Source: a plasmid. Taken from it: a stretch of DNA of 35,665 bases. Numbering within the stretch: the first letter of the stretch is position 1; every line of letters starts with the position of its first letter. The notes below the pieces were generated by a model that ran no database searches, was not told the origin of the DNA, and saw only the letters and a list, made by a program, of their open reading frames with translations. Both the position numbers and the translations under genes were made by a program. Where the stretch lies: sequence record CP051992.1. One strand, given 5' to 3'. This document shows, piece after piece, positions 575 to 35,665 of the stretch.

Positions 575-614
575 AGTAGACAAAGTAGACAAAGTAGACA
601 AAAGGTGTTATAAT
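575..614 (+). promoter_or_regulatory. Promoter with three perfect tandem 9-bp repeats (agtagacaa x3), each carrying a -35-like TAGACA, then 17 bp to an extended -10 TGtTATAAT
   Basis: Repeats at 575-583, 584-592, 593-601. TATAAT at 609-614 with TG at 606-607. RBS aagaaagaggg and ATG at 649. Confidence 0.5.
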
Positions 615-2526: not shown

Positions 2527-2628
2527 GCCGTAGACTTCTGGGGGAAGCTACGACTCAAGCATTTATAAAAACACTACAAAGATAATCATAATTTATAAAT
2601 GCTGAATAATCAAGAGGAGGCATTTATT
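2527..2628 (+). promoter_or_regulatory. Conserved leader element, copy A: hairpin (gccgtag..ctacgac), then aagcatttataaaaa, ~17 nt, taatttataaatgc, SD
   Basis: Near-identical architecture and 15-mers recur at 35380-35484. The inverted repeat gcatttataaa / tttataaatgc brackets a -10-like hexamer (gataat). Confidence 0.5.
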
Positions 2629-5963: not shown

Positions 5964-6519
5964 ATGGCTAAAATTGGTTATGCACGTGTATCAACGAAAG
6001 ATCAAAGTCTTGACGGCCAAATTGATACACTTAAAGAATTTGGGTGTGAACGTATCTTTAGTGAAAAAATAAGTGGCCGGAAAGTCAAACGTACAGAGCT
6101 TGATAAGTGTTTAGATTATTTACGAGAGGGAGACACATTAGTTATCTATAAGCTTGACCGGTTAGGTAGAACGACAAAGCAATTGATTGAATTATCACAA
6201 TGGCTCGATGATAACGGGATTGATTTACAAATTATTGATATGAACGTTTCAACGAAAGACGCAATGGGTAAAATGTTTTTCACGATGATGAGTGCCTTTG
6301 CTGAACTTGAAGCTAACTTATTAAGTGAGCGTACAAAAAAAAGGGTTAGCTGCTGCGAGGGCAAGAGGTAGATTAGGAGGTAGACCGTCTTTACCAGACC
6401 ATAAGAAACGAGAAATTAAGTTCTTATACGATGAACAAATGATGACTGGAGAAGAGATTGCTAAGAAAACAGGAGTAAGTCGCTCTACTGTTTATCGTAT
6501 AGTTAAGGAAAGAAAGTGA
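5964..6519 (+). pseudogene. serine recombinase (resolvase/invertase family, Bin/Sin-like) split by a +1 frameshift in an A8 tract
   Basis: N-terminal MAKIGYARVSTKDQSLDGQ...LDRLGR is the catalytic resolvase domain. The second ORF (6325..6519) continues ..GLAAARARGRLGGRP.. with a C-terminal HTH (GVSRSTVYRIV). The two frames join if the run at 6335-6342 is A7 rather than A8. Confidence 0.7.
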
Positions 6520-6548: not shown

Positions 6549-6768
6549 TTTTAGAATTTATTTTTTGTGTTGATACGCTCACACGCACAATCAGAGATTG
6601 TGCTTTTAACAAGCCTACGTGATATTGCAAGGGGCAAAAAACTTTTTATTTGTGGCCATATGGCCAGTCTAAAAACTTTTATTGCTTGTACCCTTGCAAT
6701 CTCCAGCGTAACGGCTTGTTTCAGTGGCTATACAACACGAAAAAAATAAATAATTTCTAAAAGAAAAA
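6549..6768 (+). repeat. 220-bp structured direct repeat, copy 1
   Basis: 97% identical to 7280-7499 (7 mismatches). Contains hairpin gcacaatc-aga-gattgtgc+tttt, nested inverted repeats caagcc..ttgcaaggg / cccttgcaa..ggcttg, and palindrome tggccatatggcca. Ends directly at the SD of the 121-aa ORF. Confidence 0.8.
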
Positions 6769-6781
6769 AGGAGTTAAAAAA

Positions 6782-7147
6782 ATGGATAAAAACAAACTTG
6801 AAATTTATTTGAGAATATGCGAAAACATCAAGGAATATAAAAATTTAGAATTTGAATGTTATAACGAAGATGAAGAAGTTTTTGATTCAAACTTACAATG
6901 TCCTTTGGCATATACTACAAAAGGAGATAATGAGGAATTTGAAATTCAGGTTACATTAGATTTAAATAATAACCAAATTATTAAAGAAATATCGCATGTG
7001 TATATAAATTATAAAGAATATGAGTGTTTTAAAGATTGGGAAGAAATAGCATCTAAAACTTTAAACTTTGACGATTTAATTATGACTGATATGGACGTAG
7101 ATGATTTACTAGAAGAAATTCCTAATAAAAAAGGAATAAAATATTAA
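6782..7147 (+). CDS. strongly acidic hypothetical protein (121 aa)
   Basis: SD aaggag. About 34 D/E against 15 K/R. Flanked by the two 220-bp repeats. Confidence 0.6.
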   Translation: MDKNKLEIYLRICENIKEYKNLEFECYNEDEEVFDSNLQCPLAYTTKGDNEEFEIQVTLDLNNNQIIKEISHVYINYKEYECFKDWEEIASKTLNFDDLIMTDMDVDDLLEEIPNKKGIKY

Positions 7148-7279: not shown

Positions 7280-7499
7280 TTTTAGAATTTATTTTTTGTG
7301 TTGATACGCTCACACGCACAATCAAAGATTGTGCTTTTAACAAGCCTACGTGATATTGCAAGGGGCAAAAAACTTTTTATTTGTGGCCATACGGCCAGTC
7401 TAAAAACTTTTGTTGCTTGTACCCTTGCAACCTCAAACGTAACGGCTTGTTTCAGTGGCTACACAACACGAAAAAAATAAATAATTTCTAAAAGAAAAA
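7280..7499 (+). repeat. 220-bp structured direct repeat, copy 2
   Basis: See copy 1. Ends at SD caaggagga of the 29-aa peptide ORF. Confidence 0.8.
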
Positions 7500-8018: not shown

Positions 8019-8624
8019 TTAAATGTTTTTTGTGTACTTACAATTAGGATAGTTAGAACAGCCTAAAAACTGGCCGTTTTTGCCTGTTCTAACTACTAAT
8101 TTATGATTGCATCTTGGACATTTTTCATTATTTGAAAAATCGGGATTTATACTAATAATCCATTTAGATAAGCTTGTTCTATCTTTCATAACGACATCGC
8201 ACGCCTTACCTAACTCGACTGCACTTTTAGTATAAAAACTATTAGTCACAAGCCATGCTTCATCGGCATTGTAAAAACGTTGTGCGGTGTATATTTCTTG
8301 CACAGCTTTAATACCTATCTTACTGTTACTCCGTTTTGCTTGTACAACTATTTTTTTATTCTCTTTTTTTAATATTAAGTCTGCACCATAGTCCCTTGAA
8401 GCTTTCGTTACAATTGGCTTATATTTTAACTTTAAAAACAATGCTTCGAGATAATATTCGAATTCTATGCCTTCCATTTTATCTATATCAATTATATGTG
8501 CTCTTCTATATAATGCTTGAATTTTTTTCTTCTTAATAAATCTATAAATGACGGGCGTTAACTTATATGCGATAACTAACATAAATATTAGTAGTAAAAT
8601 ATTGTAGATGTTTATTTCAGTCAT
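8019..8624 (-). CDS. membrane-anchored Mrr-like (PD-(D/E)xK) restriction-endonuclease-fold protein with C-terminal topoisomerase-type C4 zinc ribbon (201 aa)
   Basis: N-terminal TM (ILLLIFMLVIAY). GADLIL...VVQAKR nuclease-core pattern. C-terminal CPRCNHKLVVRTGKNGQFLGCSNYPNC. Ends 2 bp after the primase-like gene. Confidence 0.6.
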   Translation of the reverse strand: MTEINIYNILLLIFMLVIAYKLTPVIYRFIKKKKIQALYRRAHIIDIDKMEGIEFEYYLEALFLKLKYKPIVTKASRDYGADLILKKENKKIVVQAKRSNSKIGIKAVQEIYTAQRFYNADEAWLVTNSFYTKSAVELGKACDVVMKDRTSLSKWIISINPDFSNNEKCPRCNHKLVVRTGKNGQFLGCSNYPNCKYTKNI

Positions 8625-17626: not shown

Positions 17627-17689
17627 AATTCTGTTAACCTCCTAATCAAAAATACTTAAAATCTTTTAAAAATAAAATTTTCGTAAGAG

Positions 17690-17875
17690 CATAAGGGAAA
17701 TATGACCCCATATTTTATGGGTGGCTGGCAAAGCCAGCCATTTCAAGGTTTTTAAAGAATTTAAAGTGACCCCACAATAAACTATAGTGTCACAGTTTTG
17801 TGACACTATATATTGTGTTTGTCACAGTTTTGTGACACAACATGTAGAATTTGTCTTATTTTTGTGACACTTGTT
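17690..17875. other. candidate origin of transfer (oriT): GC hairpin tggctgg-caaag-ccagcca (17722-17740), 11-bp perfect inverted repeat tatagtgtcac/gtgacactata (17783-17810), second inverted repeat (17819-17838) and a third TGTGACAC copy (17862-17869)
   Basis: Read directly. Lies between the T4SS operon end and the RHH-relaxase operon start. Confidence 0.55.
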
Positions 17876-32575: not shown

Positions 32576-33565
32576 TTAATCATTTTGGCTAAAAATATTC
32601 CAAGAACTATTTTTAAAATTCTTTTTTCGCATGTTTAATGAATGTAATTCTTCAAGTTCCATTTTTATACATTTCATCAAATATCCTTGCATAGTTTCAA
32701 CACTTTCGTTTTTCATATAAACTTTTGCTTTAAAGCGTTTTAAAACATTTACAAGGTCATAATCGATATCTTCTAGCATATAAGTTGTGTTATGTTCAGT
32801 ATTAAACGATTTCTTTGCTTTTAAAATAATTTCTTTTACTACTTTGAGTTCTCTATAAGAAAAATTATTAAGATAGTGTTTTGATTGTTCAGGGAATTCT
32901 TGAAGTTCTGTGAATTTCAAAGCTTCTTCATCAGAATTTAGTGAATCATGATTTGAATGATTTGAATGATTACTAATTTTATTTTTGAACTCTATATCAT
33001 TCAAGTCATTCATATCATTATTGTCAGTATCAATATATTCAGTATTACTTAAATCAGTATCATTAGTGTGCGATTTTCGCATTTCTTGTTGTGCGATTTC
33101 AGCATTTCTAGAAATGCGATTTTCGCATTTCTTGAAATGCGAAAATCGCATTTCAGCGTCATTACTAGGTTCAACACTTGTTTCTTCTTGTTTTTTTAAT
33201 TCATAAACATCTTCTTTAGTAATTGTAGGATTCTTCAAATATAATTTGTTTGGTTTACCTTGACCACATCTGACTTGTTCTAAAAGATCAGCTTTAGATA
33301 ATTCTTTTTTAATTTTTGTTAATTTTCCATCGTGACAATTTAATATAGTTTTAAGATTTTCGTTTGTGAAGATGAAAAATATATCACCATTTTCATCAAA
33401 CCAATTATTTTTAATTGATAATTCTAGTCTATCCTTTAACAATGCATAAGCAATTTTTGCATCATTGCTTAATTGCATATATTTTTCGTTAGTAAAAAAT
33501 ACTTTTGGTAGTTGGTAAAATTTCTCTCTATATTGTTGTTGGATATTAAATCTTTGTTCAGACAT
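32576..33565 (-). CDS. rep: RepA_N-family plasmid replication initiator
   Basis: N-terminus MSEQRFNIQQQYREKFYQLPKVFF...LSNDAKIAYALLKDRLELS...NWFDENGDIFFIFTNE...GQGKPNKLYL is the RepA_N domain. ATG 33563-33565 with SD aaagagg; the ORF track extends to 33682. Confidence 0.8.
   Translation of the reverse strand: MSEQRFNIQQQYREKFYQLPKVFFTNEKYMQLSNDAKIAYALLKDRLELSIKNNWFDENGDIFFIFTNENLKTILNCHDGKLTKIKKELSKADLLEQVRCGQGKPNKLYLKNPTITKEDVYELKKQEETSVEPSNDAEMRFSHFKKCENRISRNAEIAQQEMRKSHTNDTDLSNTEYIDTDNNDMNDLNDIEFKNKISNHSNHSNHDSLNSDEEALKFTELQEFPEQSKHYLNNFSYRELKVVKEIILKAKKSFNTEHNTTYMLEDIDYDLVNVLKRFKAKVYMKNESVETMQGYLMKCIKMELEELHSLNMRKKNFKNSSWNIFSQND
33074..33166. repeat. four ~22-bp iteron-like repeats (tgcgattttcgcatttcttg variants) inside the rep coding sequence; candidate oriV
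   Basis: Read directly; each unit contains the palindrome gcgaaaatcgc. Confidence 0.6.
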
Positions 33566-33649
33566 AATAAAAACCTCTTTCCGAATTTTAGTTTGGTAAG
33601 AGGTAATAAAACGTTTACATTTTTTGTGTTTATTTAATAATCTAGGTGC

Positions 33650-33762
33650 TTGCACTAAAGAGAAAATCATTATATAATACAAGTATCAATTTTATATTAA
33701 ATAAACGTTTGCAGACGTTCTATTACCAGAGAGCAACTAATTCCAGTAGTTGCTCTTTTTTC
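33650..33762 (+). ncRNA. candidate countertranscript (antisense) RNA opposing the rep leader: promoter TTGCAC-17-TATAAT, ~77-nt transcript ending at a hairpin plus T-run
   Basis: ttgcac 33650-33655, tataat 33673-33678, terminator agagcaact..agttgctct+tttttt at 33730-33762. Antisense to the rep 5'UTR. Confidence 0.45.
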
Positions 33763-34112
33763 ATTTCTTATAGATTAATAATAACATGTTGTTATTATTT
33801 GTAAAATTTATTTTTGAATCCACTTACATTATTACTTCGCTATCTCTTAATTACAATTTAATCTTTTCCACTTGCAAAAAGCATTGCTGTAAATACTATG
33901 AAGATCAAAGCTACTATAGTTCCTAATAGAATAAAGATTGCAGAAATGATATTCCATACGATAAAAAATATTTTTTTACCCCCCACCACTTCAATTTATT
34001 TATTGCAAATATTAAAAGACATAGAATGCCCACAAATACGAGTGATGAAAAAGAGATATTTACAGTTTGAATATCCATAGTTATCACCTCTTTATTAGAT
34101 TATACCGTAATT

Positions 34113-34157
34113 TAAACCATTAAACAAGTATACTAGTATAATAGTTTAATGGTTTAA
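34113..34157. promoter_or_regulatory. ~45-bp near-perfect palindrome (aaaccattaaac..gtatactagtata..gtttaatggttt) overlapping the par promoter; centromere/operator candidate
   Basis: Read directly. TATAAT at 34137-34142 lies inside the palindrome. Confidence 0.5.
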
Positions 34158-35305: not shown

Positions 35306-35326
35306 CAAATAAACTAATAAATTAGT

Positions 35327-35367
35327 TTACTAGTATATAAGTATACTTTTAAACTAGTATACTTATA
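35327..35367. repeat. cluster of (a)ctagtata / agtatact half-sites downstream of par, related to the upstream palindrome
   Basis: tttactagtatataagtatacttttaaactagtatacttat. Confidence 0.45.
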
Positions 35368-35379
35368 AAACGAAAATTA

Positions 35380-35484
35380 AGTCGTAGGTATTCTTGGCAG
35401 ACCCTACGACTAAAGCATTTATAAAAATACTTACACTTATAGAATAATTTATAAATGCCTGTAAATCAATAGGAGGCGTTTTAA
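35380..35484 (+). promoter_or_regulatory. Conserved leader element, copy B (perfect 9-bp-stem hairpin agtcgtagg..cctacgact, aagcatttataaaaa, taatttataaatgc, SD aggagg)
   Basis: Homologous to 2527-2628. Confidence 0.5.
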
Positions 35485-35665
35485 ATGATAGAAAATTACG
35501 TTGAATGGTTTTGTGTATTTATCAATGTACCGTATGAAAGAAATGAAACACTAGAATCATGGATAATTAATAGAAAGCAAAATAAAGAATTTGAAATAGG
35601 AAATGTATCTGTGTTACAAAACAACACAAAACAATTATCATTATGCGATTTTGATATTGACATGT
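35485..35665 (+). CDS. hypothetical protein, 3'-truncated by window end
   Basis: ATG with SD aggagg. Translation MIENYVEWFCVFINVPYERNE... Confidence 0.4.
   Translation, partial: MIENYVEWFCVFINVPYERNETLESWIINRKQNKEFEIGNVSVLQNNTKQLSLCDFDIDM

Follow-up and report, generated by a model that had tools for sequence, protein, structure and literature searches.

A repeated leader cassette on a staphylococcal conjugative plasmid and its putative antisense RNA gene

Why should one short leader stand before two unrelated genes of the same plasmid? We asked this of a 35,665-nt stretch of plasmid DNA (record CP051992.1; the whole stretch is called the window here), in which a leader of ~110 bp occurs twice, as copy A (2527–2628) and copy B (35380–35484). 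A comparison of 29 distinct copies of this leader revealed a conserved cassette whose minus strand carries a promoter-like sequence followed by a hairpin and a U-run, and whose plus strand can form two competing helices, one of which covers the ribosome-binding site. We propose that the cassette may be an antisense-RNA-gated translational switch of the gene that follows it, a reading whose chances we judge to be about even; all that we say of function derives from sequence analysis.

One leader before two unrelated genes

A megablast search against plasmids identified the window as a complete circular Staphylococcus aureus plasmid of the pWBG749 conjugative family, and in CP030696 window position 35665 joins position 1. 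An earlier, sequence-only reading of this DNA had placed the two leaders 33 kb apart. That distance is an artefact of linearization: because the plasmid is circular, the copies lie ~2.8 kb from each other, and the 60-amino-acid (aa) open reading frame (ORF) behind copy B crosses the junction. Reading the two regions directly, we found both leaders in place with every part that had been listed, namely a G+C-rich hairpin, a 15-mer (AAGCATTTATAAAAA; exact matches in the window only at 2557–2571 and 35413–35427), a variable stretch of 17 nt in both copies, a 14-mer (TAATTTATAAATGC; exact matches only at 2589–2602 and 35445–35458), GGAGG, and ATG. AATCAA stands between the 14-mer and GGAGG in both. 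The hairpin is indeed shared, with one correction: the stem sequence given for it, GTCGTAG, is GCCGTAG on the 5′ side in copy A, which produces a C·A mismatch on the plus strand and a G·U pair on the minus strand. A run of As 5′ of the hairpin on the plus strand had been missed. In a pairwise alignment of 143 columns, copies A and B had a mean column identity of 83%.

Copy A leads into a Shine–Dalgarno sequence (SD; AGGAGG, 2615–2620) and a 49-aa ORF (ATG at 2629, stop codon ending at 2778; the unit spans 2615–2778 on the plus strand), and copy B into an AGGAGG at 35471–35476 and the 60-aa ORF (ATG at 35485; 35471–35665 on the plus strand, ending at window position 2). The two ORFs had been called unrelated, and we too could detect no similarity between them. 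Neither product matched a Pfam, NCBIfam, or PHROG family at the curated cutoff (PADLOC was not searched); the sole match was a weak, sub-cutoff one of the 49-aa ORF to NCBIfam BH0509 (E = 0.0079). Both products are charged and hydrophilic, not membrane peptides, and further genes follow both ORFs. A type I toxin–antitoxin system was considered and rejected, given that the products are hydrophilic and not small hydrophobic peptides. The stretch that separates the two copies holds the 60-aa ORF, a membrane ORF of 82 aa, a ribbon-helix-helix (RHH) mini-ORF of 33 aa, a terminator, a promoter at 586–614, and four genes, the last of which is DUF1002.

A profile of the leader family matched the window at copies A and B alone (E = 1e-23 and 1e-30, respectively). 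Two ATTTATAAAT sites (196–209 and 458–471) were rejected as extra copies, since the profile does not match them. In related plasmids further copies are common: a blastn search found the element in ~115 plasmids of PLSDB, nearly all of them staphylococcal, with S. aureus, S. argenteus, S. saprophyticus, S. haemolyticus, S. equorum, S. xylosus, S. nepalensis, S. pseudintermedius, and Mammaliicoccus as hosts. Conjugative plasmids of the pWBG749 family are among the carriers, as are the exfoliative-toxin pETB plasmids, and the element is frequent on non-mobilizable plasmids. One PLSDB entry labelled Klebsiella quasipneumoniae (NZ_CP031260.1) contains copy B at 93% and the 60-aa ORF at 83% identity, and is probably a mislabelled or contaminating staphylococcal plasmid. 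The 29 distinct copies that we compared come from metagenomes and from plasmids of at least nine Staphylococcus/Mammaliicoccus species; they were drawn from diverse plasmids, three matches of a genome scan, and metagenome contigs reached via the 49-aa protein. That scan, an exact-pattern search of genome contigs with the inverted repeat of the leader alone, gave 97 loci, nearly all of them chance occurrences in unrelated phyla, and only three (L025, L086, and L094) were real copies. A scan of viral contigs returned no copy of the element. Rfam gave no match at the gathering threshold in the whole window and only chance-level matches at a permissive threshold around copy A, and the element was mentioned neither in a full-text literature search for its motifs nor in the pWBG749 papers.

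A promoter-like sequence and a hairpin on the minus strand

Between the arms of its inverted repeat, the leader had been said to hold a −10-like hexamer. The hexamer is real: on the minus strand every one of the 29 copies has TAnnnT here, preceded at exactly 17 nt by TTGAWT (TTGAAG once), the reverse complement of the AATCAA that adjoins the SD. A promoter scan located the resulting leftward promoter at 2585–2613 in copy A (minus strand; TTGATT at 2613–2608, a 17-nt spacer, and TATGAT at 2590–2585), and its counterpart in copy B lies at 35441–35469 (minus strand; TTGATT at 35469–35464, a 17-nt spacer, and TATTCT at 35446–35441). The −10 varies among eight hexamers (TATGAT, TATTCT, TATTGT, TAATAT, TAGAAT, TATTAT, TAAACT, and TAAAAT), and its −12T, −11A, and −7T are the only bases that never change within the inverted-repeat loop, which is variable elsewhere. 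The importance of −11A and −7T in −10 elements is well established, and this pattern of constraint is the signature expected of a functional −10.

The A-run that precedes the hairpin on the plus strand means that, on the minus strand, the hairpin is followed by a U-run. This arrangement was found in 28 of the 29 copies, ~25 nt beyond the promoter; the exception, L008, has a different hairpin further left. In copy A the putative intrinsic terminator spans 2521–2554 on the minus strand (GUCGUAGCUUC-CCCCA-GAAGUCUACGGC, then UUUUUU, the complement of the A-run at 2521–2526), with a predicted energy of −15.7 kcal/mol against −11.0 kcal/mol for the plus strand. In copy B it spans 35367–35410, also on the minus strand (stem at 35381–35410, then UUAAUUUUCGUUUU; −15.4 kcal/mol minus, −14.5 kcal/mol plus). 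Folding of all copies gave a more stable hairpin on the minus strand in 25/29, by up to 10 kcal/mol, because the variation in the stem yields G·U pairs on the minus strand and C·A mismatches on the plus strand. No fewer than four independent stem positions show this asymmetry; most copies have it at position 2, and L003, L012, and L132 have it elsewhere in the stem. The stem covaries (GTAGG/CCTAC, GTAGT/ACTAC, GTAAA/TTTAC, GCCGTA/TACGGC, and GGTCG/CGACC) over a loop, CTTGGCAG, that is constant throughout, even in L013 with its wholly different stem. Read on the plus strand, the loop holds a tetranucleotide of the YUNR type, usually UUGG and, in copy A, CUGG. We considered the hairpin as a terminator of plus-strand transcription and rejected it, the U-run being on the other strand and the C·A mismatches on this one; in copies A and B only two of the eight plus-strand bases after the hairpin are U, with no U-tract.

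From a minus-strand promoter with a terminator behind it, one would expect a leftward RNA of ~58–68 nt, complementary to the plus-strand leader. From the positions of these two signals, the putative small RNA of copy A (sRNA-A, ~58 nt) would span 2521–2578 and that of copy B (sRNA-B, ~60–68 nt) 35367–35434, both on the minus strand. The predicted RNA has a single-stranded 5′ tail of ~25 nt that contains UUUAUAAAUGC. When the plasmid was scanned with the RNA tails for targets in trans, the RNA's own leader and the sister leader dominated. Both tails share the 15-mer, so A and B are predicted to cross-react to some degree (−23.7 and −18.5 kcal/mol for the duplexes with the sister leader); the loops of the first hairpin differ (CUGGGGG in copy A, UUGGCAG in copy B). 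We also noted a site in the last ORF of the transfer operon (~8490–8535, minus strand) where UCAAGCAUUAUAUAGAAGAGCACA resembles the left part of leader A. Its duplex with the predicted sRNA-A tail has an energy of −19.5 kcal/mol, ~4.6 standard deviations under the plasmid mean.

In every context the cassette begins directly after the end of an upstream unit and ends at the start codon of a small ORF of either the 49-aa or the 60-aa family. The upstream units include four ParB/RHH types with centromere-like repeats, DUF1002, and other hypothetical genes; at least five different genes were seen in this place. No DNA-binding gene common to all contexts was found among the compared plasmid neighborhoods, and the predicted RNA gene is the sole component that always travels with the cassette. 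Some copies have decayed: L012 has lost the right arm of the inverted repeat and the −35 element, and L094 has lost the SD and the start of the ORF, with everything to the left, including the RNA module, intact.

Competing helices in the plus-strand leader

The sequence GCATTTAT occurs three times in each leader, once in the left arm of the inverted repeat, once in the right arm in inverted form, and once more in the gap from the SD to the ATG (as GGAGGCATTTATTATG or GGAGGCGTTTTAAATG), and the right arm therefore has two possible partners. Paired with the left arm, it forms the helix H2, which leaves the SD free (copy A, 2559–2602 on the plus strand, with left arm GCATTTATAAA at 2559–2569, a 22-nt loop, and right arm TTTATAAATGC at 2592–2602, −9.6 kcal/mol; copy B, 35415–35458 on the plus strand, with arms at 35415–35425 and 35448–35458, −7.9 kcal/mol). 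Paired with the ribosome-binding region, it forms the helix H3, which occludes the SD. In copy A, H3 spans 2594–2627 on the plus strand and joins AUAAAUGCU of the right arm to GGCAUUUAU (2619–2627) between the SD and the AUG (−6.9 kcal/mol); in copy B it spans 35447–35487, also on the plus strand, joins the right arm to AGGCGUUUUAAAU, covers part of the SD and the start codon (−10.1 kcal/mol), and is the minimum-free-energy fold.

Both helices are maintained across copies. In H2, 94% of cells are paired, with two compensatory pairs; L111 has a compensatory A-T to G-C change in both arms. In H3, 95% of cells are paired, and the only variation is U-A/U·G and C-G/U·G, pairs that are valid only in plus-strand RNA. 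The helices are mutually exclusive and are predicted to lie within 1–5 kcal/mol of each other in 16 variants. When the 69 SD–ATG sites of the plasmid are ranked by how well they complement the right arm, both ribosome-binding regions fall in the top three. With the stretch that the RNA would cover masked, the predicted accessibility of the SD–AUG region fell in 23 of 28 copies (mean, 0.45 before and 0.26 after masking).

Several promoter-like sequences give indirect support to transcription of the leader from upstream. In L005 and L011, a TAGACA-17-TATAAT promoter (11/12 matches) ends ~10 nt before the cassette hairpin, and L013 has TTGATA-18-TAGACT at the same place, just upstream of the hairpin. 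In the window, the promoter scan found a near-consensus TAGACA-17-TATAAT at 586–614 on the plus strand, likely the source of transcripts that would read through 649–2502 into leader A. We found no plus-strand terminator between parAB and leader B, or between the operon of the 586–614 promoter and leader A (614–2629). Three tandem GTAGACAAA repeats (window 577–614; 1950–1992 in L005) overlap the −35 of this promoter and look like an operator for a plasmid repressor; the TAGACA-repeat promoter type also occurs in L011. Within the cassette, a plus-strand TTTATA-16/17-TAnnnT promoter is present in 10/29 copies, all of them leaders of the 60-aa ORF type, and copy B has such a possible rightward promoter at 35418–35445 on the plus strand (TTTATA-16-TAGAAT), overlapping the leftward one. 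The other leaders have a plus-strand spacer of 13–15 or 21 nt or lack the −12T. We therefore rejected an internal plus-strand promoter as a general feature, and kept it for copy-B-type leaders, those before the 60-aa ORF.

We propose that the cassette has two parts. One would be a minus-strand non-coding RNA gene, with a sigma-A-type promoter between the SD and the loop of the inverted repeat, and the hairpin as its terminator; the other would be a plus-strand mRNA leader that adopts either H2, with the SD free, or H3, by way of the third copy of GCAUUUAU. The antisense RNA would be made constitutively and be fully complementary to the first hairpin of the leader and to the left arm. Binding would probably begin as a loop–loop contact, at the conserved UUGG/CUGG, and spread from there along the tail, taking the left arm out of H2. 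The right arm, thus freed, would form H3 and so shut the ribosome-binding site, and less of the first ORF product would be translated. Head-on transcriptional interference over ~60 bp may add to the effect.

A possible role would be to couple accessory-gene expression to the copy number of the plasmid or to its arrival in a new host. We can go one step further and picture a portable, self-contained post-transcriptional gate, made of an RNA gene and a three-repeat switch and placed before accessory or establishment operons. The RNA dose would follow plasmid copy number, and genes behind the gate would then fire only at low copy number or just after entry into a cell; the first-hairpin loops having diverged, two gates on one plasmid could act independently. 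This extension is conjectural, and we think it rather improbable. If the proposed switch is true, staphylococcal plasmid biology would gain a small-RNA/leader family not described so far, unannotated backbone gene blocks by the partition locus would prove to be under antisense control, and the cassette would offer a compact, experimentally tractable system. One of its carriers, the pWBG749 conjugative family, mobilizes many resistance plasmids. General concepts would stand unchanged even then, because antisense control of plasmid leaders is classical.

Several observations weigh against the proposed switch. Each promoter hexamer agrees with consensus at only 4–5 of six positions, and a single match to such a promoter is not significant in AT-rich DNA (52 sites in place of 48 expected). 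The predicted change in accessibility is modest, and absent in 5/28 copies. The copies are closely related, so that most H2 and H3 pairs are invariant and the covariation comes from few sequences; some of the complementarity between H2 and H3 is built in, since TTTATAAA is its own reverse complement. An mRNA begun at the internal plus-strand promoter of copy-B-type leaders would miss the region complementary to the RNA. Finally, the 49-aa ORF has homologues that lack the cassette (L113, L130, and L131), and the cassette is therefore dispensable.

The last point would suit a different explanation, in which the cassette is a compact bidirectional promoter for the downstream ORFs, its left-hand terminator shields the upstream operon (parAB with centromere repeats, or DUF1002) from an antisense by-product, and the RNA has no regulatory role. 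A plus-strand TAnnnT is offset by one base from the minus-strand −10 in 18/29 copies, in 10 of those 18 it lies 16–17 nt from TTTATA, and the centromere-like repeats end right at the terminator. For copy B, whose TTTATA-16-TAGAAT overlaps the leftward promoter, such an arrangement is plausible. Overall we consider this explanation unlikely: the plus-strand promoter is poor or absent before the 49-aa ORF, whereas the minus-strand promoter is perfect in all copies, and a by-product RNA would leave unexplained both the conserved loop over a covarying stem and the third copy of GCATTTAT with the H2/H3 competition that it creates.

The sequence-only reading had offered a dimeric repressor operator, its main idea, or an RNA-level control element; the evidence favors the latter, and the operator fits less well. 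As an operator, GCATTTATAAA-N22-TTTATAAATGC would bind a dimeric or tetrameric repressor, of plasmid or host origin, that closes the overlapping promoters and makes a regulon of the two ORF blocks. Its arms do flank the −10 regions and sit in the promoter spacers, with an outer-edge span of 43–45 bp in 26/29 copies, and the plasmid encodes RHH proteins (among them a 79-aa ParB-like protein and the mini-ORF at 389–490) and, just downstream of copy A, an AP2-domain protein. Yet the full range of that span, 41–49 bp, fits base pairing better than a rigid dimeric operator, and the compensatory changes and variable-length extensions of the arms preserve pairing, not a fixed half-site. No regulator gene is shared by all contexts, which have several ParB/RHH types and often lack the AP2 protein; the evident repeat operators of this plasmid have other sequences (ACTAGTATAC and GTAGACAAA); and neither the oriented terminator nor the G·U pattern of H3 would be explained. 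We regard an operator as quite unlikely, though a host factor might still be its binding protein. Hairpins of this kind might instead act in single-stranded DNA (ssDNA) while the plasmid passes to a new cell by conjugation; like Frpo, ssi, or sso, they would then be an ssDNA promoter or a priming site that allows early expression in the recipient. The hairpin tolerates G·T pairs on the minus strand, and, because the oriT core is on the minus strand (17685–17695), the transferred strand could be the template for plus-strand genes. Elements of this kind are defined by a long imperfect hairpin with the −35 and −10 held in its duplex stem, or by RSB/CS-6 motifs; here the stems are short (8–13 bp), the −10 is in the loop, and −35 and −10 are not within a duplex stem. 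The cassette is also present on many non-mobilizable plasmids, and the plasmid has far better candidates in the 220-nt hairpins at 6549–6768 and 7280–7499, leaving an ssDNA role very improbable.

Neighboring features and known systems

These hairpins are formed by 220-bp direct repeats (6549–6768 and 7280–7499, 97% identical) that flank an ORF at 6782–7147. Each folds as a single imperfect hairpin of ~200 nt, with an RNA fold of −80.8 kcal/mol against −43.7 kcal/mol for shuffles (z = −8.7) and DNA folds of −54.7 kcal/mol (minus) and −51.1 kcal/mol (plus). They are unannotated in 41 plasmids, 39 of them conjugative, match no Rfam family, and might serve as a single-strand origin or as an ssDNA promoter. 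The pWBG749 oriT core is CTTATGCTCTT, with adjacent IR1–3 (PMC4652767). Its sole match in the window is at 17685–17695 on the minus strand, mid transfer gene cluster, with three 20-bp repeats, TGTCACAGTTTTGTGACAC, upstream (17788–17871); at 15 kb from the cassette, this match led us to reject the cassette as an oriT or oriT mimic.

Around the partition locus, ACTAGTATAC-type repeats (34126–34150 and 35320–35365) lie on both sides of the pair of parA and an omega-like RHH parB, and are probable centromere or operator sites. Other plasmids have different repeats at that place, TGTGTAAnTTACACA and TGCATGCATAA, which abut the cassette. An unlisted 33-aa ORF at 389–490 (MLELSVRKKINRLANENGYTSSSEFINELIKNI) looks like a minimal RHH protein; its C-terminus resembles the CopG/ParB that precedes the cassette in L003 and L010, and a terminator follows at 527–547. 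On the minus strand between rep and parA, a small, very hydrophobic ORF (33858–33989; …KKIFFIVWNIISAIFILLGTIVALIFIVFTAMLFASGKD) could encode a membrane peptide, be a toxin-like gene, or form part of a rep antisense region, and a hairpin on the opposite strand (33728–33758) lies nearby. The RepA_N-type rep ORF (32576–33682) contains 23-bp iterons (TGCGATTTTCGCATTTC…) at 33069–33154. A serine recombinase gene (5964–6519) appears split into overlapping ORFs at 5964–6371 and 6325–6519, probably through a frameshift or as a pseudogene.

Antisense control of plasmid leaders is familiar; this cassette is undescribed and belongs to no curated family. Parts of it recall several known systems. Symmetry of the −10 can create bidirectional promoters with divergent starts ~18 bp apart, and copy B and 17 others have a TAnnnTA that reads as a −10 on both strands, with the predicted starts of copy B ~18 bp apart (35434 and 35452). 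Unlike such promoters, the cassette keeps only the leftward promoter in all copies, and its predicted leftward transcript has a dedicated, conserved terminator. In the type I toxin–antitoxin loci hok/sok and par(pAD1), the latter with Fst and RNA I/RNA II, a small antisense RNA controls the translation of a very small ORF. The cassette appears similar to these in its predicted small antisense RNA, its repeats complementary at the ribosome-binding site, its YUNR-type loop in the terminator-proximal hairpin, and its very small target ORF. Its ORFs are hydrophilic and followed by further genes, however, and its RNA would be divergent from the leader or antisense to it, with no convergence on a shared terminator.

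The Inc RNA (RNAI) of IncI-alpha, IncB, and IncFII plasmids has the loop hexanucleotide 5′-UUGGCG-3′, and the cassette loop is mostly UUGGCA and, in L013, UUGGCG, the loop being kept as the stem covaries. We take this as a resemblance only: UUGGCR is on the target (plus) strand of the cassette, the hosts are Gram-positive, and no pseudoknot activator is evident. The likeness is broader for the countertranscripts that control plasmid leaders in the staphylococcal RepA_N rep systems (RNAI of pSK41 and pSK1), pT181, pIP501, and CopA/CopT. In rep systems, a short antisense RNA arises from within the mRNA leader and ends at an intrinsic terminator, and its binding probably either sequesters the SD by refolding the leader or attenuates transcription. 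By analogy, the cassette resembles pSK41/pSK1 RNAI in the layout of its predicted RNA, its hosts, and the type of plasmid backbone. The rep leader of this plasmid, at ~33.7 kb, has its own terminator-like hairpin (33728–33758) and no sequence similarity to the cassette. What sets the cassette apart from the rep countertranscripts is its target, small ORFs and not rep, together with its portability and its presence twice on one plasmid.

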